From a virus: a DNA stretch of 64,000 nucleotides. Below, piece by piece: positions 15,076 to 62,760 of the stretch (position 1 is its first letter; each line of letters begins with the position of its first letter). The notes below the pieces were generated by a model, which saw nothing but the letters and a program-made list of their open reading frames with translations, did no database searches and was not told the DNA's origin. The translations under genes were made by a program, and so were the position numbers. The DNA is taken from the IMG/VR virus record IMGVR_UViG_3300029922_000029, positions 1 through 64,000 of that record. One strand, given 5' to 3'.

Positions 15076-15490
15076 TGGTTGAGGTGGGGTGAATCGAACA
15101 CCCGTCCGAAATCTATCCAATCGACTTTCTACACATGCTTTGCCACAGTTTTGATTCTCGTGGCCCGAAATAGGGACGACCTGGCTTTCGCTAGACCTTC
15201 CTCCACCATCCGGTTTTTTAGCCCCAGACCGGCAACAGGGCTTCGGATTAATACTGGCCTTACGGCCTTCATCATCGCGGAAGCGCGCGATTTTTGCCGG
15301 ATTCCTTTGACGGGCTCTCGGCGCCCCGCTACCTAATTACTTAGGCGGCTTTGGCGACTTCCACAACCCGGCGGGCTGCGAAGTCGACCACGATCACATT
15401 GTCAGTCTGTGAATGCCCATTTTTAGGTGGTCCTAGGCGCCACCGCATGCAAGTCGATTTTCAAAGATCCCGTCGAAACCTTTCACCCCA
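15076..15490 (-). ncRNA. ssrA: tmRNA
   Basis: 5' TGGGGTGAAAGGTTTCGACGGG and 3' GGACGGGTGTTCGATTCACCCCACCTCAACCA, with a G3:U70 pair and encoded CCA. Internal tag ORF 15403-15341 reads DNVIVVDFAARRVVEVAKAA*. Confidence 0.95.
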
Positions 15491-27654: not shown

Positions 27655-29487
27655 TTGTTAAAAACCCTCAGTATTAAGCATTTCAGGGGACACAACGGCA
27701 CTTTCCACTTCGGCCCAGGCCTGAACCTGATCCGAGGCCCGAACGAAGGCGGCAAAACCACCATCGCTGAGGCCATCAAGTTCTTGTTCACGGGCTCCGA
27801 TATCTTGGATTCGCCGTCGACAGAGCATCTCATTACGACCGGGCATGACGCATGCGAAGTCACTCTGATCACGGCCAAGTCAGCCGTCACGCGCAAGAAG
27901 AAACGAAACGGAACCAGTCAGATCAAGGTGGCAATCGGCGACACGCCGGCAGTCGAGATCAAGCAGCAAGACATAGACGAACGGCTGATTGGGATGTCTC
28001 CGCAACTCTTCACGGCTTGCTGGCTGTCGGGTTACTTCATGAATTCCCTCGATGAGGAAGGGCGCATGCAGCTCTTGGGCTCAGTGAGCAATGTCAACCG
28101 TGCCGACATTCTCTTGAGCCTCCTGCCTCCGGATTCTCAGATTCCATACAAGGTGAAGTGCGAGGACCCGGCTGTTGACTTGCGAGTCATCACTGAAGAC
28201 AGAAGGAGTCTTCAGAACGTATTGTCGTCTGACGAAGGTGCGCTGCGTGAAGTCGTGGCGTCGATTGAGGCCACACTCTCAGGTGGAAAGGAGGCCACTC
28301 CGGATTCCGGAGTCATCCAGCAACACGTGAATGAACTCACGGCCCAGCTCGAGCTCCATGCGGGTTACCAGCGGGATCTGTCCCGGTATGAGAACTCGCT
28401 GAGGTTGAAAGAGCAGTATGACCAATCTGTGAAGGGAGCGCATGATCGGTTCAATGCGGCCGAGCAAAACGTCTTGGCATTGAGTGCAAAGCTGTCACCT
28501 AATTCACTCGGAGATGTGCCGATCCTTCAGGACTATTCGCCCGAAGTGTTTCGACTCACCGGTCTCAAGAAGGTGCTTCCGCAGGCCCCACAAAAGCCGA
28601 AGCTGCCAGAAGGAGATCAGAGTGGCAGTTGCCCCGTCTGCCTTCAGACCATCACGAGTGATCACCGGCATGCCGTCATCAACGAGTACGAAACGACGCT
28701 CATGGCTTACAACAAGGAGGCGTCCGAAGTCAGTCAGCACAACCTCAAGATCCAAGCCGAGATCGATAGCCTTCAGAAGAAAGCTAACGAAGAGCAGGTT
28801 GCCAAGAACGAGTACCACAGGGTTGAGACTCAGATTACGCGCGAGCTCGAGACTGCCAGAAAACTGGTTGCAGATCTCAGGAAAGAGATCATGTCCCAGA
28901 AGGAGCCGACAGTCGTCTTTGCTCCAGCCAAGCCCGAAGGAGATCAGCAGGAGCTTAGTAACCAGTTGGTTACTAAGAAGGCGCTGCTTCAAAACCTCAT
29001 GGACAGGCAGGGAAAACTTGAGGGTCAACAGGAGCGCCGTAATCTTCTCGAGCAGACGATCCAGAATCGGAAAGCACAGATCGCTTGGCTTGAAGTGGTG
29101 GGTCGGGCGCTCGAACAACTCCCGATTGTCGAAGCCGAAGCAATCGCGAAGACTCTCCAGATTGATGACGGCAGACTCACGATCCAGAGGTTCCAGCGGA
29201 AATCGGCCGGCAAGACCTTGGAGCGTGCGGAGCCCGTCATCACGGATGCGAATGGGGTGAACTATCTGGCACTGTCCTCGGGACGCCGGATCAGGCTCGA
29301 TTCCGAGCTTTGCTATAAGTTCCAGGAACTCACGGATGCGGCTGGGCTACGGGCTCCGAAGCTTCTCTTTGTTGACAACAAAGACCTGGTGGACCGGCAA
29401 GTCAAGCTGGTTCCTGGTGTTCAAGTTCTCCTCTGCCATGTCGACCCTTCGGTGGGCACGGGCATTCTCGTTGATATCGTTGAATAA
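27655..29487 (+). CDS. sbcC: SbcC/Rad50-like ABC ATPase (recombination nuclease subunit)
   Basis: GPNEGGKTT, coiled coil with a CPVC hook, LSSG signature and LFVDN. Confidence 0.9.
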   Translation: MLKTLSIKHFRGHNGTFHFGPGLNLIRGPNEGGKTTIAEAIKFLFTGSDILDSPSTEHLITTGHDACEVTLITAKSAVTRKKKRNGTSQIKVAIGDTPAVEIKQQDIDERLIGMSPQLFTACWLSGYFMNSLDEEGRMQLLGSVSNVNRADILLSLLPPDSQIPYKVKCEDPAVDLRVITEDRRSLQNVLSSDEGALREVVASIEATLSGGKEATPDSGVIQQHVNELTAQLELHAGYQRDLSRYENSLRLKEQYDQSVKGAHDRFNAAEQNVLALSAKLSPNSLGDVPILQDYSPEVFRLTGLKKVLPQAPQKPKLPEGDQSGSCPVCLQTITSDHRHAVINEYETTLMAYNKEASEVSQHNLKIQAEIDSLQKKANEEQVAKNEYHRVETQITRELETARKLVADLRKEIMSQKEPTVVFAPAKPEGDQQELSNQLVTKKALLQNLMDRQGKLEGQQERRNLLEQTIQNRKAQIAWLEVVGRALEQLPIVEAEAIAKTLQIDDGRLTIQRFQRKSAGKTLERAEPVITDANGVNYLALSSGRRIRLDSELCYKFQELTDAAGLRAPKLLFVDNKDLVDRQVKLVPGVQVLLCHVDPSVGTGILVDIVE

Positions 29488-36307: not shown

Positions 36308-37663
36308 ATGATTATTGGATTGACCGACAAACCCGTTATTCGCCGTGATGGTAAAATCCGCTGTGGTACCGGCCCAAAAACGGGCGGCTTCAAGAACTCC
36401 CCTCACTTCCTGCTCCGCGATGCCGAGCAGCTCATTCCAGTCCTGGGCGCCGAACCCACCGAGATCTTCTTCACCTTCCACTCGGATAATCCAAGTGAGG
36501 TCGCCAAGATCGATCTTCGCTGGTACAGCCAGACCAAGCTCCTCTGCCAGTCCATGCACAACACGACGGACAAGACGAAGCCAATTGGCCAGTGGGCCGT
36601 CTACCGCGGGCAGAACGAAGTTCCTGGAATGACGCAAGAGCCCTACCTCGGACTTGCCCGTACCCGGAAGCGCCAATGTGATTACAAGGGCTGCGCTCAA
36701 TACCAAACCGGTGACTGCGGCGAGCACTTGTTCCTCAACATCATGATCCCGCAGTACAGCATGGGCTCAATCTTCACGCTCGACTCGGTCTCAATTCTGG
36801 CCGTCGTCAATGCGCTCGGACTGTTCGAGAAGGCCGGAACCCAGCATGGCGGCAAGTTTTCGGGCGAGATCTATCGCATGTTCAAGAAAGAAGTCGAGTC
36901 TGAATTCTTCGATACGAACGCCGGTAAGGACGTGAAGCGGAAGCAGCTCGTGGTTCAGTTTGCTCAAGTCAACTATCAGGACTATATCACCAGGTTTGGA
37001 AACAAGATCAGCCCAGAGAACATGCATGCACTCGAGGCATTACGGGCGCGTGGGCACGTCGGGAATCGAAGCATCTATTCCTTGGCATCGGATCTCAGTC
37101 GCCAACAAGAACCTCTCGCATTGGTCGATCACAGCTTCGAAGAAGATCTTGAAGCTCTGCCATCACCAGAACAAGTCTCTGCTCCCCTGACTCCGCTGGG
37201 GGGTGGTGATGACAAAGCCATTAAAGACCGAGGAAACCATCCTGCTCTCGCCGCTCTGTTCGTGGAGCTCTCAACACTTGCAAAGGTGGATAATTCAGAG
37301 CTCAACCGATACAACGTGGCGAAGACCGTAAACAGTGTCGAGAACCTCGCCACTTATTTGAAAGCCAAGATTGCCGAACACAAGAAGCGACTCGCACTCA
37401 AAGAAGGTCCGGTTGTCAGTCCGCATTCTCACACACCTGCTCATGTCACGGGCACCGCTCTACCAGCCGGATCCGTTCAATCAGCGAGACCAGCAGGACA
37501 ATCGCAACCAGCAGGATTAGCGCAGGCCAAGCCGCAACCAGCCGCGGGCCCAGCACAGTCTGTCGTCAGCAAGCCAACCGGTGCGCCCGTAGTCGTGCCT
37601 GCCGGTACGCCCATCCCAGGGGCAGCCCAAAAGGTTGCTTCCATCGTAAGTCCTTTATTCTAA
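36308..37663 (+). CDS. Gp3-like (recombination directionality factor-like) putative strand-annealing protein
   Basis: GKIRCG...HF...Y...LLC...C...C...C..H..L...S pattern with a disordered tail. A PD-(D/E)XK exonuclease gene lies nearby. Confidence 0.6.
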   Translation: MIIGLTDKPVIRRDGKIRCGTGPKTGGFKNSPHFLLRDAEQLIPVLGAEPTEIFFTFHSDNPSEVAKIDLRWYSQTKLLCQSMHNTTDKTKPIGQWAVYRGQNEVPGMTQEPYLGLARTRKRQCDYKGCAQYQTGDCGEHLFLNIMIPQYSMGSIFTLDSVSILAVVNALGLFEKAGTQHGGKFSGEIYRMFKKEVESEFFDTNAGKDVKRKQLVVQFAQVNYQDYITRFGNKISPENMHALEALRARGHVGNRSIYSLASDLSRQQEPLALVDHSFEEDLEALPSPEQVSAPLTPLGGGDDKAIKDRGNHPALAALFVELSTLAKVDNSELNRYNVAKTVNSVENLATYLKAKIAEHKKRLALKEGPVVSPHSHTPAHVTGTALPAGSVQSARPAGQSQPAGLAQAKPQPAAGPAQSVVSKPTGAPVVVPAGTPIPGAAQKVASIVSPLF

Positions 37664-39289: not shown

Positions 39290-40642
39290 ATGCAAGTCGT
39301 TAAAGAAATCCCGCAAGGCTACAAAGAATGGAAACCCAAGTACGGCCCGTACTCCGCATCGCGCCTGATCACGGCCAAGTGTCCCCAGCGCTACTTCGGA
39401 CAGTACGTCCGCGGCGATCGCAGTATCGGCTTCTCGCAGGCAGCAAGCCGCGGGTCAGCTATCCATGAGATCTGCGCCAGGATCACGACAGCCAAGACCC
39501 AAGGGGTCAGTCTCACTCCAGTTCTGGTTGACCAGTGGGTAGGAGAGGCTATCGGAAGATACCCAGCCGCTTACGAGCAAGTCGACATGGTGAAGGCCGC
39601 AGCCGGAGCCTACATCGGTAATCCGTCTCGTTACGTGAACGCAACGACGAAGTGCGAAGTGCCTTTGGCATTCCGGTATTTCGTTGAAGAGTTGATGGAC
39701 GATTCGATCAGTCCAAAGGTACTCCTGCTCCAGGAGCCTTATGAGATTGAGGGTAGGCCCAATCCAGCAGCCTTCATCGGCGGCCGGATCGACCAAGTCA
39801 GTATGGACAGGGTGACCAATACGATTACGCTCCTTGATCATAAGAGCACACCCTCTGCGGTTCAGAATGAAGACACGAACTTCCAGATGGGAGTCTACGC
39901 TTGGTTTCTGCACCTCCTCTATCCATCGTTCACAATCAGAACCGTAATCCACTACGCTCACCCTGATCTGAACTTCTACGGAAGTCCAGTTGTGTGGAGC
40001 AAACAGGAGCTCGATGATGTGGGCTCGTACGTCATCACGCGGATTCGGGCGATCGAATCTTTCGAAGAGTTTCAGGCGATCCCTGGAAAACAGTGTGACT
40101 ACTGCCATATGGTGCAGTCGTGCGACATTAATCTTCAAATGGAAGAGCAGCGGGCACGAGGCACGATCGATCTCAACGTTCGATCGGTTCAGGATGCCCA
40201 GCGTATCGCTGAGCAAATGCATGTGGTCGGCAAGATGTACGATGACCTTCAGAAGACCTATAAGGATGGTCTTGAGAAGTTCGGCATCACGGGAACTGGG
40301 GTCGCGATCGATGGTTATGTCTACAAGCACAAGACGATGGATGAAGCCGTGGATTGGGTTGCTACTGACTTCAACGTGAGGGATCAAGCTTTGATTGCGA
40401 TCCAGGCGCTCACCGATCCTCAACTCGAAGGCGAGGCGAGGCAGAAAGCAGAGCTGATGTCCAAGCTTCCGAGTCTTCATGCGGTTCTTGCCCACTATGG
40501 CGTGCAGCCGGATGAATTCAAGAAGTGGGACAGTGACAGCCTGAAGAGTTTGTGGAGGCTCGACAAGCCTCAGCTACTCGAGAGAATCAAGGGGTACATT
40601 GTGAATAAGCGGAACACTAAATTTGGGAGGTACAAGATATGA
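39290..40642 (+). CDS. PD-(D/E)XK exonuclease (RecB/AddB/Cas4-like)
   Basis: SASRL...CP, GSAIH, GRID...LDHKS, Q..VY and CDYC....C motifs. Confidence 0.9.
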   Translation: MQVVKEIPQGYKEWKPKYGPYSASRLITAKCPQRYFGQYVRGDRSIGFSQAASRGSAIHEICARITTAKTQGVSLTPVLVDQWVGEAIGRYPAAYEQVDMVKAAAGAYIGNPSRYVNATTKCEVPLAFRYFVEELMDDSISPKVLLLQEPYEIEGRPNPAAFIGGRIDQVSMDRVTNTITLLDHKSTPSAVQNEDTNFQMGVYAWFLHLLYPSFTIRTVIHYAHPDLNFYGSPVVWSKQELDDVGSYVITRIRAIESFEEFQAIPGKQCDYCHMVQSCDINLQMEEQRARGTIDLNVRSVQDAQRIAEQMHVVGKMYDDLQKTYKDGLEKFGITGTGVAIDGYVYKHKTMDEAVDWVATDFNVRDQALIAIQALTDPQLEGEARQKAELMSKLPSLHAVLAHYGVQPDEFKKWDSDSLKSLWRLDKPQLLERIKGYIVNKRNTKFGRYKI

Positions 40643-44489: not shown

Positions 44490-44525
44490 GCGGGCAAAAT
44501 CATAGCTTCTTCTGGCATAAGCTAA

Positions 44526-45995
44526 ATGCAAGGAGAGATTATGAATACAGCTACTGAGTCGGAACGTTTCACGGAGCAAGATAGCACATTCACTGGAGGC
44601 GGCGAGAGCCTTTTCAGTCGGTCTGAAGACCTGAACCAGCCCGAATACCAAGCCCGCATCCAGGCACCAGAATCTCCGCAGGAGGGCGACGGCATCCTCT
44701 GGGAGGTCGAGGATCACAAAGCGGCCTACGGGCAGGGCGATCGCTTCAATCGATCCCGGGACGTGCTGAGCGAAGCCACGATCGAGGCATGGGGCCAAGG
44801 CGTCTTTGAATCGATCAGTCAAAGCAGTCTGCGAGAAATCAAAAAATACGTCGATGACTTCCTTGACTTCCTCCACTGCCCGACCTTCAAGAGTTTCGAC
44901 TCGATGGACATGATCCGGATCATGTTCGCCTACCTCGACTATCACGACATGTACTTCTGCTTCTATGACATGCCGGTCCAGATGTGCATGGATCAGCACG
45001 AGTTCACCTACATCAATAAAGCGACTGGCGAGACCCTGAACCCAGAGCATACCGAAGTCTTTCGGGTCGCACGCGGCTGGGACTTTGCTCCGTTCCGAAC
45101 CTTCAAGCAGCGTATCTCTCATCCTTCCGTTCAGGCATTCGGAAAGGGTGAACAAGTCATGCACTCGAAGGAACAAAGACCCATCACAAGAGAGGATATT
45201 CTTAGAGTTCTCTGCGAACCAGTTTATGGAAATTACGATGAAAACTCTTCTCAATCCAGGCAGTCCGGCCTCAAGGAGTATGTTGAAGATCAGGTCGATG
45301 CTTACTTGAGCGAGCAGACTTTCGATGTGCGCAACGACATGGAGAAGGTCCAGGACTTCAACGATGTTAGGCAGGCCATTATCGAAGCGACAGTCGCAGC
45401 TGGGATCGCGGTCTGCGCGTGGATTAAGTCTCCGATGGCTGTCCCGTTTCTGTCCCAGTGGCATCCGGTCTACTATCATATCTTGGGTTGGGACAACGAC
45501 ACCAACAAAGCCTATATCGAACCCGGAACCGGAGGAGAGGCGGTCGTGACCGGCTGGGAAGTCATGACTCTCAAGTCAGTCACAAAGCTCGAGAATATGC
45601 CGGCCGGCAGCTGCCGGAGCTGTCAGCTTACTCTTCACTGCACCCACATTCTGAATGCTAACGCATTGATCTACAAAGTTTGCAGTTGCGGGAAGCCAGT
45701 TCATCCTGATGACCTGGAGCTCGATCTCCACTCAATCCCTGGTCCTTATCGCGGGACCGCAAGGGATGAACGGTGCGTCCCTTATCGGAAGGCGCACCCG
45801 AGTCTGCCTTCGTTTGTCTGTTATCGCTGCGCTGAGAAGCACCTGCTGTTTGAGACCGCCATGCAGGCACCCCCTCAGTACAAATGCTCACGCACAGTCT
45901 GCCCGAATACGGGTTGCGCCCACCATTGGGGTGAGGCAACGCGCCGGCAAGTCCTGAATCAGAGGCGGAGGCAAATGTTGCCAGCCCCATCGTAA
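44526..45995 (+). CDS. Hypothetical protein with a Cys/His-rich C-terminus
   Basis: CRSC, CSC, CYRC and CSRTVCPNTGCAHH. Preceded by CTGGCATAAG. Confidence 0.8.
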   Translation: MQGEIMNTATESERFTEQDSTFTGGGESLFSRSEDLNQPEYQARIQAPESPQEGDGILWEVEDHKAAYGQGDRFNRSRDVLSEATIEAWGQGVFESISQSSLREIKKYVDDFLDFLHCPTFKSFDSMDMIRIMFAYLDYHDMYFCFYDMPVQMCMDQHEFTYINKATGETLNPEHTEVFRVARGWDFAPFRTFKQRISHPSVQAFGKGEQVMHSKEQRPITREDILRVLCEPVYGNYDENSSQSRQSGLKEYVEDQVDAYLSEQTFDVRNDMEKVQDFNDVRQAIIEATVAAGIAVCAWIKSPMAVPFLSQWHPVYYHILGWDNDTNKAYIEPGTGGEAVVTGWEVMTLKSVTKLENMPAGSCRSCQLTLHCTHILNANALIYKVCSCGKPVHPDDLELDLHSIPGPYRGTARDERCVPYRKAHPSLPSFVCYRCAEKHLLFETAMQAPPQYKCSRTVCPNTGCAHHWGEATRRQVLNQRRRQMLPAPS

Positions 45996-46060: not shown

Positions 46061-46543
46061 ATGGACGAGGCAAAATTCAAGAAGCAACTTAGAGCCTCCT
46101 TTCTAGCGCAGACAGCGCTCGCCCAGGGCTACGAGTGGCCGGTCACCGATCCCTTCCGGACTGGCACCGCCGACTTCTTTCTTGCTGTCCGTGGCTGCGT
46201 GATGGCATGCGAGGCCAAGCATATGAAAGAGCTTCCGGTCCGAGAAAACTCGAGAGTCCTCGACCACCCCGTCTCGATGGAGCAGTACAGGTTTCTCAGA
46301 CGTTACCAGGAGAGCGGCTCGCCATCGTTTGTGCTCATCGGTGTTGGTAAGGATGCGGCTGCTTACACCAACCGGATTCAGCTCAATTACACGAAGAAGG
46401 AGCTCATGTTCTTGCCGAGGCTGCAAAGACTCGGGAAAGACCTCTGGGACATGGGACCTTTGATTACGATCATGGCGGATCACAATAAAACCTGGCAGCC
46501 CTATCTCAACCTCCCTGCGGACGCACATGCCAACACCCCCTGA
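46061..46543 (+). CDS. RecU/Hjc-like Holliday junction resolvase (PD-(D/E)XK)
   Basis: E..F...GTADF...ACEAK...Q.RFL...G..SFV. Confidence 0.75.
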   Translation: MDEAKFKKQLRASFLAQTALAQGYEWPVTDPFRTGTADFFLAVRGCVMACEAKHMKELPVRENSRVLDHPVSMEQYRFLRRYQESGSPSFVLIGVGKDAAAYTNRIQLNYTKKELMFLPRLQRLGKDLWDMGPLITIMADHNKTWQPYLNLPADAHANTP

Positions 46544-47102
46544 AAAACCTCAGTCAAAACCCCAAGGCTTCTTCTTCGAGGAAGATCCGGACTCGACCGA
46601 GAGTGGCGTCGACTGGTCTGAGCAATCCGCATTTTTCAATAGCGTGATCCAGACCGAGGGTAAACATAAAGCTAAAGAAGGCAGCGAGATGCCGTCCATG
46701 GTTCCGATGGGGATCCAGTCGGAAGCAAGCCTTAAGCGTCTCCAGAATGGTTGGATCGCAGTGGAGTTTGGGAAAGTCAGGAAAGACTACGCGATCCACA
46801 CCATCCCCATCAACCCGCGAGTCGACTTCGGAAACAAGGACGTCTTCGCGCAGACTTGTCGGATCACGATCCTTCTCCTGAACGAGATCGTGCCCTTCGA
46901 TCTTCAAGTGAACGTATTCCCTCCGGATCCGAACTGGTCGGTGAAAGCGGTCAGCTATAAAATCATTGGTGGCGTGGATGCTTGGAACCTCGACCTGGAT
47001 AAACTCGAAGCAGAGGTCATGCCTAAAATCCTCGAGCAGCTCACCCAGTACTGCATGGCCAAAAATACTCAGCGCGGCCCTCAACCGGGTCCACGGCGAT
47101 GA
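46527..47102 (+). CDS. Hypothetical protein
   Basis: 191 aa, ATGA-coupled to the next gene. Confidence 0.75.
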   Translation: MPTPPEKPQSKPQGFFFEEDPDSTESGVDWSEQSAFFNSVIQTEGKHKAKEGSEMPSMVPMGIQSEASLKRLQNGWIAVEFGKVRKDYAIHTIPINPRVDFGNKDVFAQTCRITILLLNEIVPFDLQVNVFPPDPNWSVKAVSYKIIGGVDAWNLDLDKLEAEVMPKILEQLTQYCMAKNTQRGPQPGPRR

Positions 47103-47899
47103 AACTCAGGTCACTGGGGTCCGGTTCCTCCACCTGTCGTCACCCGCTCGTGCCGTCCTGCTGGCTTCTTCAGTCGGCCGGCGCGACTGTGGTGATTGGA
47201 GCTCCTTGGCAGCTGGCAGCTAGGCTTGAAGCGATCGGAATCAGTCTTGACCAGATTGATATGATCCTTCCCCTCTCGCCCCGCGGCGACCAGATCGGTG
47301 GCCTGGAAGAGATTGCTCACTATTTCATGGGCAAGTCGAAGAAACCCTACCTTGTGGCACCCGAGAAGCTGCTTCAGAAAATCAAGGAGCGGATCGAGCC
47401 GGCCTTCCTATTTTACCTGAAGGAACTGTTTCAGGTGAAGGCAGTGTCTCGGATCCAGGTAAAAGAAGAGCATATCTCAGAGACCCTGAGCTTCGTGCCC
47501 AACTACTTGGACCTCAACATCCCTTCCTACGGCATCCGACTCGAGGACGCCAAGATCTTCATCACAGGCGAGACGGCCCTCAATGAAACCTGGCTGTTCA
47601 AGGAAATGGGCTGCAACGCGATCCTACACAGCTGTAATTTATCAGCAGGCATTACGGGTTATCCAGGCCCTCCAAGTCTTGCCGAGCTTCAGACCCTCCC
47701 CGTCTATCTGCAGAACAAACTCTGGCTCTACGGTTACGGCAATGCGTTCGCTGAGCACGAGTCCCAGATTATCCCTATGCTCTTTCTGCCTCAGGGCGCC
47801 GCAGTCTATGACAGCGCGAGGCGTGACAAGATTCTCAACAAAGAGCGTTATTTACGGGAAAACGCAAAGCGTCTTCTGGGTAACGAACGAGAACCCTGA
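47099..47899 (+). CDS. Apyc1/RNase Z-like metallo-beta-lactamase fold protein lacking metal ligands (pseudo-enzyme)
   Basis: LGSGS, ID.I.., SPRGDQIGGLEEIA (for THxHxDHIGGLEE), SYG, FITGET (for SGDT), ILHSC, PSLAEL, LYGYG (for LMHYG) and PQG. Confidence 0.75.
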   Translation: MKLRSLGSGSSTCRHPLVPSCWLLQSAGATVVIGAPWQLAARLEAIGISLDQIDMILPLSPRGDQIGGLEEIAHYFMGKSKKPYLVAPEKLLQKIKERIEPAFLFYLKELFQVKAVSRIQVKEEHISETLSFVPNYLDLNIPSYGIRLEDAKIFITGETALNETWLFKEMGCNAILHSCNLSAGITGYPGPPSLAELQTLPVYLQNKLWLYGYGNAFAEHESQIIPMLFLPQGAAVYDSARRDKILNKERYLRENAKRLLGNEREP

Positions 47900-48254: not shown

Positions 48255-48301
48255 ATCAAAAAGTCGGGATTATCTGGCATAAGAAAGATAGGAGAAAACT
48301 T

Positions 48302-49987: not shown

Positions 49988-50512
49988 ATGATTATTCCGC
50001 TCGATGTCCAAGAACAGAGACCTATGGTTGAGCTTCCCCTCCGAGGTGTAGATCTCAGAGCCTTTCTGCTTCGCGTAGAGTTCGCATTGATCGTCCAGGC
50101 ACTCGAACGAACGAGCAACCACAAGACTCATGCCGCCGAGATTCTTCACATCAAACGTTCCACTTTGATAGAAAAGATGCGGCGTTTGGGATTACCTTTG
50201 TGCGTGAAGACTCGCCAGACTCCGGACACCGGAAGTCTCAAAGACAGGGCAAATGCGCATACAAAACGAGTTCAAGCTAAGAAAAAAAAGAGAGCGCGGC
50301 TAAAACCTAAATTAGAAATACAAAAAGAAGAAATCATCCATCGTGTCATGGGACTAATGGGATGGGACGCCGATAGGGCTGCTGTTTGGTACCGCACCTC
50401 TAACCCAAACTTTGGGGGCGCATCAGCTGATCATCTTGTTCAAATGAATCGCGGCCGCAAAGTCTTAGCCTTTATTGAATCAGCAGAGAAAGAAAGTAAG
50501 CCAGCCGCCTGA
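49988..50512 (+). CDS. Fis-HTH fused to an MbcA/ParS/Xre antitoxin-type C-terminal domain
   Basis: ALERTSNHKTHAAEILHIKRSTLIEKM and AAVWYRTSNPNFGG...GRKV. Confidence 0.75.
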   Translation: MIIPLDVQEQRPMVELPLRGVDLRAFLLRVEFALIVQALERTSNHKTHAAEILHIKRSTLIEKMRRLGLPLCVKTRQTPDTGSLKDRANAHTKRVQAKKKKRARLKPKLEIQKEEIIHRVMGLMGWDADRAAVWYRTSNPNFGGASADHLVQMNRGRKVLAFIESAEKESKPAA

Positions 50513-62685: not shown

Positions 62686-62760
62686 TCCGGGGTGCACCAC
62701 AAGTAGGTGAGCACACTGTTAATGTGCCGTATGCTGGAGCGTTACCAGCCCCCGGAGCCA
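62686..62760 (+). tRNA. tRNA-Asn(GTT) with non-canonical D and T loops
   Basis: TCCGGGG/CCCCGGA-G-CCA acceptor, CACC/GGTG D stem, GCACA-CTGTTAA-TGTGC anticodon arm and GCTGG-AGCGTTA-CCAGC T arm. Confidence 0.88.

Follow-up and report, generated by a model that had tools for sequence, protein, structure and literature searches.

The window analysed here is the first 64 kb (64,000 nucleotides) of a 108.7-kb linear viral record in IMG/VR (IMGVR_UViG_3300029922_000029), for which CheckV estimated a completeness of ~70%. We examined an open reading frame (ORF) at positions 47099..47899 on the + strand that encodes a protein of 266 amino acids (aa), hereafter P0001, with a metallo-β-lactamase (MBL) fold that resembles Apyc1 and lacks its metal ligands. 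Apyc1 is the founding anti-Pycsar enzyme. The original prediction described an intact and translationally coupled ORF, and both features were borne out, as the reading frame was uninterrupted and its ATG overlapped the stop codon of a 191-aa upstream ORF as ATGA. The start codon is right, since the N-terminus of P0001 aligned residue for residue with all homologues. Within the ORF, and on the same strand, lie a loop reading C13-R-H-P-L17 (47135..47149), the remnant of motif II (47276..47293), an acidic hairpin, E123-E-H-x-S-E128 (47465..47482), and a C-terminal extension comprising residues 239-266 (47813..47896) that is not found in canonical Apyc1.

P0001 is homologous to Apyc1

When P0001 was searched with phmmer against all PDB sequences, the significant matches were to Apyc1 only (7U2R, E 8.8e-11; 7T28, E 4.8e-7; 7U2S, E 1.7e-5). 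An AlphaFold2 model of P0001, with 29 homologues in the alignment, had a predicted local distance difference test score (pLDDT) of 91.8 and a predicted template modelling (TM) score of 0.89. Foldseek searches with this model returned four Apyc1 chains at the top (E 1e-20 to 2e-16; TM 0.79/0.85), followed by YhfI, ElaC and RNase Z, and every fold match was an MBL protein. Structural alignment with VIA-align to 7U2R gave Z 31.1 and a root-mean-square deviation of 1.8 Å over 230 residues, while the next tier, made up of MBL proteins other than Apyc1, reached Z ≤24, i.e. 7 Z units below Apyc1. The Pfam family for Apyc1 (PF23023) matched P0001 with 22.2 bits (E 1.1e-4), which is short of the gathering score of 50 bits, and scored 21.2 bits in the genome-wide search; PHROGs, PADLOC and NCBIfam gave no family match. 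Colinearity with the Apyc1/RNase Z-like family, which had originally been noticed by eye, was thus recovered by phmmer, Foldseek and VIA-align, and the best structural match was the MBL fold of Apyc1 rather than a fold outside the superfamily.

P0001 has a true Apyc1 fold and derives from the class II (MBL-fold) cyclic-nucleotide phosphodiesterases of the Apyc1 type; although homologous to Apyc1, it does not function as a member of this enzyme family. The two proteins, P0001 and Apyc1 (gp147 of phage SBSphiJ; 7T28, 7U2R, 7U2S), are both phage-encoded, are colinear over P0001 residues 1-238 and have in common the G-x-G-S and GGLEE motifs, F111, I-L-H-x-C, L-x-x-L-P, K207 and Y213. They differ in that P0001 is without the five His ligands, the His of the HST loop and the motif-I Asp, has lost the loop that carries Y112, does not conserve the equivalent of E74 among its relatives, has gained a basic C-terminal extension of ~28 residues along with other motifs of its own, and falls below the Pfam gathering threshold. 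YhfI of B. subtilis, ElaC/RNase Z and other class II MBL phosphodiesterases (6KNS, 1ZKP, 1Y44) have the superfamily fold in common with P0001 (Z 21-22), but are farther from it than Apyc1 is (11-15% identity) and all retain the metal site; RNase Z also has a flexible arm that is not present in P0001. The only VIA-align match on which the C-terminal helix of the P0001 model superposed was human ELAC2, in its C-terminal region.

The metal ligands and catalytic residues of Apyc1 are replaced

Residues were mapped by alignment with the SBSphiJ Apyc1 sequence, the numbering of which reproduced the H64/H66/H69 positions of Hobbs et al. The motif II remnant (HxHxDH in Apyc1) reads S60-P-R-G-D-Q65 in P0001, such that H64, H66, D68 and H69 of SBSphiJ correspond to S60, R62, D64 and Q65, respectively. 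The motif-I Asp is replaced by G34, the motif-III His by L137, the bridging Asp (the D of 'DT') by E158, the HST-loop His (the H of 'HAS') by P191, and the last His (the H of 'MHY') by G212. Overall, none of the five metal-binding His, the His of the HST loop or the Asp of motif I is retained. Each of the substitutions listed in the original prediction (SPRGDQ, ET, PPS and YGY in place of HxHxDH, DT, HAS and MHY) was found in this alignment, which added the changes at G34 and L137 and a deletion of 10 residues. This deletion falls exactly in the loop that follows the canonical LKGGL motif and holds Y112 in SBSphiJ. E74 of SBSphiJ is present as E70.

In Apyc1, two Zn ions hold the phosphate, while contacts to the nucleobase are weak and the base pocket is weakly defined (Hobbs et al., PMC9117128). 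E74 and Y112 are catalytic residues that come from the opposing protomer and complete the active site in trans (PMC9117128). As the two-metal mechanism is gone in P0001, hydrolysis of cyclic nucleoside monophosphates (cNMPs) of the kind performed by Apyc1 is excluded on sequence grounds, and the protein probably lacks this catalysis. A survey of >350 Apyc1 homologues reported that all sequences examined retain the catalytic site (PMC11370490), and our literature search found no paper describing an inactive Apyc1.

Completion of the Apyc1 active sites in trans (PMC9117128) also bears on a role as a protein decoy, in which P0001 would mimic Apyc1 or a host MBL phosphodiesterase and engage a host protein without being active itself. 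The target could be a sensor of Apyc1-like proteins or a dimer of the host YhfI or RNase Z type, and a heterodimer with P0001 would therefore be inactive. Retention of the fold, and presumably also of the dimerisation helices around G68-L69-E71, is in keeping with such a dominant-negative action, but identity to any canonical relative is only ~25-30% and there is no precedent, and we regard this role as very improbable.

Ligand loss is common to a whole diverged clade

A word-indexed search recovered 28 homologues at 42-63% identity to P0001, none of which had the HxHxDH motif; one protein at 30% identity keeps it. In an exhaustive profile search of 1.84 billion representatives, ~17 clusters matched at E ≤1e-52 along the entire length, C-terminal tail included, three intermediates matched near 1e-32, and the bulk of canonical sequences matched at 1e-25 or weaker and over positions 1-215 only. 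Together, the ligand-less sequences form ~40 clusters at 50% identity. Loss of the ligands is hence common to the whole clade and not private to P0001, and the homologues did not show the pattern of intact histidines around a single decaying copy.

Conservation was counted across 39 clade members aligned with 122 canonical sequences. Columns that correspond to the metal ligands held H or D in 116-121 of the 122 canonical sequences but were replaced in the clade. Some of these columns have become fixed to other residues, namely Q65 (36/39), G212 (37/39) and G34 (37/39), and ligand positions 60, 62, 137, 158 and 191 are variable or gapped, as are positions 60-64 in general. Position 64 is D or E in 26 of the 39 members and position 158 is E or D in 20. 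E70 is kept in 18 of the 39, the LKGGL motif is lost across the clade, and the HST loop is variable or deleted. As read from this alignment, the known cNMP site of the clade is dismantled rather than disarmed, since no conserved basic residues took over at the ligand positions, the HST loop proved dispensable, E74 lost its conservation and the loop with Y112 disappeared.

In trees built with the ligand columns removed, 42 His-less sequences fell on one side of a long branch (FastTree support 99; IQ-TREE Shimodaira-Hasegawa-like approximate likelihood ratio test 99). The three intermediates (P0045-P0047) were sister to the remaining clade and transitional in look, with P0046 still having three His and already having G212. 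Two unrelated degenerate singletons, P0141 and P0132, lay on the canonical side and have Gln at the position of SBSphiJ H69, as in the clade; ligand loss thus happened more than once in the Apyc1 family. Another database match, P0063, is a protein of 1011 aa in which residues 748-981, at the C-terminus, form a canonical Apyc1-like domain with intact His, i.e. a fusion form of the active enzyme.

The clade diverged anciently, and all of its members came from metagenomic contigs or those of uncultured viruses. No clade members were found in ~185,000 bacterial and archaeal species genomes or in cultured phages, among which only the canonical Apyc1 of SPO1-like Bacillus phages matched (25-28% identity). 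The nearest canonical relative (P0029) and the intermediates P0046 and P0047 were not found in IMG/VR. Fused or longer forms of P0001 or of its 191-aa neighbour were not found either, a negative that counts as weak evidence.

The clade conserves new polar and basic residues

Alongside these losses, the clade fixed features that canonical Apyc1 does not have. The C13-R-H-P-L17 loop, which is S/T/A-K-K in canonical Apyc1, is conserved at C13 (28/35) and H15 (30/35), and E123, E124 and E128 of the acidic hairpin are each present in 33 of the 39 members. Further polar residues are E71 (39/39), H177 and N162 (each 33/39) and N135 (32/39), and Y203, Q205, W209 and a P-x-P-M segment at 224-227 are also conserved only in the clade. 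The C-terminal extension of ~28 residues contains R241 and K248 in 39/39 members and R250 in 37/39, with R253 and E254 nearly invariant. Its net charge is +2 to +6 in all 39 members, compared with an average of -7 for the core; residues 248-264 are predicted to form an amphipathic helix, and no Apyc1 structure covered the extension in VIA-align. These clade-only polar residues and the invariant basic tail point to what may be new functional surfaces.

Such surfaces could serve a nucleotide-signal sponge, in which the metal-free scaffold, probably as a dimer, would sequester cyclic CMP and cyclic UMP or another immune signal uncleaved, with the new basic tail and the R14/H15 loop replacing the metals as candidate phosphate binders. 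This agrees with the descent of P0001 from an anti-Pycsar enzyme, with the loss of catalytic residues under purifying selection and with the retention of Q65, N135, N162, H177, K207 and Y213 beside the old ligand positions. The consistently positive tail is also of the right character, as positively charged pockets are typical of sponges (10.1101/2025.07.12.664507), and a phage sponge against Pycsar exists in MoTad2, the first Pycsar sponge, which sequesters Pycsar signals and belongs to the Tad2 family, unrelated to Apyc1 (PMC12393519). However, phosphate in Apyc1 is held by the Zn ions, with only weak base contacts (PMC9117128), and in the clade the ligand positions became variable and did not acquire conserved basic residues, the HST loop varies or is missing, E74 lacks conservation and the loop with Y112 has been lost. 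P0001 would have its mode of action in common with the Tad1, Tad2 (including MoTad2), Acb2 and Acb4 sponges only if it were indeed a sponge; it has no sequence or fold relation to them, and it is larger and derived from an enzyme. No homology of P0001 to known sponge families was found, PF23023 being its sole family match and its structural matches all being MBL proteins. We therefore consider a sponge unlikely. The original prediction had inferred that P0001 kept its scaffold and lost catalysis under selection, which stood, and that it did so for cyclic-nucleotide binding or decoy activity, which the analysis did not support, the determinants of cNMP binding (the Zn-phosphate site, the Tyr loop and E74) being those that were dismantled.

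The gene is under long-term purifying selection

All 10 of the 10 orthologous coding sequences were intact. Between orthologue pairs, the proportion of synonymous differences (pS) was 0.72-0.92, which is saturated, and that of non-synonymous differences (pN) was 0.28-0.44. The dN/dS ratio was low, at 0.15 and 0.25, in the two pairs for which it could be computed, with dS saturated in nearly all pairs. Mean pairwise identity of P0001 was 0.456, compared with 0.35-0.39 for four of five syntenic neighbours, the remaining one being a PD-(D/E)XK nuclease with a higher value (0.50). The gene is under long-term purifying selection.

A decaying, functionless relic of an Apyc1 gene would also have lost its catalytic residues, and this is the one point in favour of such a relic. 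It was ruled out for practical purposes by the intact ORFs at 10 loci and pN far below saturated pS, and further by the new invariant residues common to ~40 diverged clusters, the pLDDT of 91.8 and the kept synteny.

The strength of this constraint, together with the number of conserved polar residues, which is unusually high for a pure scaffold, would also suit a rebuilt enzyme with either a carboxylate Mg/Mn site (D64, E71, E123, E124 and E128) or a Cys/His centre (C13, H15, H125, H177 and C179), acting on a nucleotide or nucleic acid. P0001 evolves slower than most of its neighbours, and its operon contains nucleases. Both Asp ligand positions are, however, only partly acidic in the clade (26/39 at position 64 and 20/39 at position 158), and we know of no MBL-fold enzyme that is active in the absence of the canonical metal site. 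A rebuilt enzyme thus seems doubtful to us.

The gene belongs to a conserved block of DNA-metabolism genes

Clade members were present at ten IMG/VR loci, the longest contig among these being 182 kb. Seven of the loci extended far enough upstream to compare gene order, and in these the six preceding genes were in identical order: a 450-aa PD-(D/E)XK nuclease, two small proteins without an assigned function, and the 489-aa, 160-aa RecU-like and 191-aa proteins. No conserved genes were found downstream in these seven loci. When the 489-aa neighbour was used as query, the same seven contigs were returned, such that it co-occurred with the Apyc1-like gene in 7/7. Three relatives with a completeness rating of 100% (175-182 kb) gave no additional, canonical Apyc1 match over the cut-off, and no second PF23023-like match was found in the 108.7-kb record. 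The Apyc1-like gene is a single-copy, syntenic, slowly evolving core gene in a lineage of uncultured ~175-180 kb phages, unlike Apyc1, which is a patchy accessory gene. Such a setting in a DNA-metabolism unit is atypical for an accessory anti-defence gene and speaks against a sponge, although it is still compatible with one.

The block starts at its 5' end with the PD-(D/E)XK nuclease (39290..40642, + strand; PF12705, E 3e-16). The 489-aa Cys/His-rich protein (44526..45995, + strand) is the first gene of a putative transcription unit. It had no detectable family, and profile searches of the PDB and an Atlas search gave nothing; its C-terminus has an invariant array (C363, H371, C372, C386, C388, C417, C454, C459, C464 and H467) that was conserved in 7/7 related phages. 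It is followed by the 160-aa RecU-like or PD-(D/E)XK-type protein (46061..46543, + strand; phrog_2165, E 1.5e-9; phrog_843, Holliday junction resolvase, E 2.5e-4) and by the acidic 191-aa protein (46527..47102, + strand), the gene of which is ATGA-coupled to that of P0001.

The 191-aa gene adjoins the Apyc1-like gene in 8 related loci. Its product has a conserved N-terminal FFFEEDP motif, of which FFF(E/D) is invariant, and an N-terminal segment with a charge of -2 to -8. In its model (pLDDT 74.7), a disordered acidic N-terminus precedes a confident alpha/beta domain at residues 66-182. A profile search of the PDB found nothing for it, and Foldseek gave a weak match to a type III secretion system chaperone-like fold (E 5e-3) and generic alpha/beta proteins at Z ≤7.5, which were not used as evidence.

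A promoter-like motif, GCAA-N16-GGCATAAG, lies at the head of the unit (44494..44521, + strand), and its next copy, with 1 mismatch, at the likely end of the unit (48256..48283, + strand). The consensus GCAA-N16-GGYATARG had 8 matches in the window (6808, 16401, 21551 on the - strand, 26776, 36204, 39047, 44494 and 48256, seven of them on the + strand), compared with 0.72 expected, and no shuffle reached 8. In those checked (39047, 44494 and 48256), the motif was at a gene start. It resembles a sigma-70-type promoter, ttGCAA-N18-YATAAG. The copies at 44494 and 48256 bracket a five-gene unit within which no + strand terminator-like site was found. P0001 appears to be co-transcribed with the Cys-rich, RecU-like and acidic 191-aa proteins, and co-expression is supported by the ATGA overlap and by the bracketing promoter-like motifs.

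Elsewhere in the window, the + strand encodes a 610-aa SbcC-like protein (27655-29487; phrog_77, E 3e-25), a 451-aa protein with a Gp3-like recombination-directionality-factor domain (36308-37663; PF18897, E 3e-11) and a 174-aa protein with a Fis-type helix-turn-helix (HTH) domain (49988-50512; PF02954, E 2.4e-11) that also weakly matched the HTH end of the PADLOC RtcR/PspF CARF-AAA-HTH model. No close cultured relative of the phage was found. A phage-encoded transfer-messenger RNA with a tag ending in AKAA (15076-15490, - strand) and a tRNA-Asn (GTT; 62686-62760, + strand), both identified with ARAGORN, could help host prediction.

A non-catalytic binding role is tentatively favoured

The reading that we favour, at a probability of roughly 0.45, is that P0001 has no catalytic function and serves as a module that binds a macromolecular partner. 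The retained MBL scaffold would present newly fixed surfaces for binding, comprising the remodelled cleft (the CRHPL loop, Q65, E71, N135, N162 and H177), the acidic EEHxSE hairpin and the basic amphipathic C-terminal helix. The partner could be the co-translated 191-aa protein, another protein of replication or recombination, or nucleic acid; the acidic 191-aa protein with its FFFEEDP motif is one candidate. We prefer a macromolecular partner because the cNMP site is dismantled, because the gene is a slowly evolving core gene among those for DNA-metabolism proteins, and because charged surfaces were gained.

Several points weigh against this role. None of the results points directly to a partner, the fold of the neighbouring protein gave no functional clue, and only about half of the related loci had the tight coupling with the 191-aa gene. 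A rebuilt catalytic or small-ligand site would also fit the many acidic and polar residues that are conserved (E71 in 39/39, and E123, E124, E128 and H177). In addition, canonical Apyc1 in SBSphiJ is also located among nucleotide-metabolism genes (PMC9117128), and the neighbourhood of P0001 is therefore no argument against an anti-defence role.

For such a binding module, the nearest conceptual parallel may be found in the inactive MBL-fold partners of the CPSF and Integrator complexes. CPSF100 and INTS9 are inactive MBL-fold partners of CPSF73 and INTS11, respectively, and, like P0001, have an MBL scaffold with degenerate metal motifs under selection for what in P0001 would be a non-catalytic binding role. 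They differ from P0001 in that they belong to the beta-CASP proteins and have an active paralogue as partner, whereas no active MBL paralogue was found in the phage record containing P0001 or in its three complete relatives; the host may encode one.

Whatever P0001 binds, it clearly illustrates that the scaffold of a counter-defence enzyme was put to another use. An entire phage clade of ancient divergence discarded the catalytic site of Apyc1, yet the protein is strongly constrained and has new invariant surfaces, and the clade offers ~40 natural variants that are ready for biochemistry. Should P0001 prove to be a sponge, which we hold to be improbable, phage counter-defences would thereby have their first enzyme-to-sponge transition, kept as a core gene in large uncultured phages, and a route by which nucleases can give rise to sponges. 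If P0001 instead acts in replication or recombination, this would be a caution against labelling every PF23023 match as anti-Pycsar.

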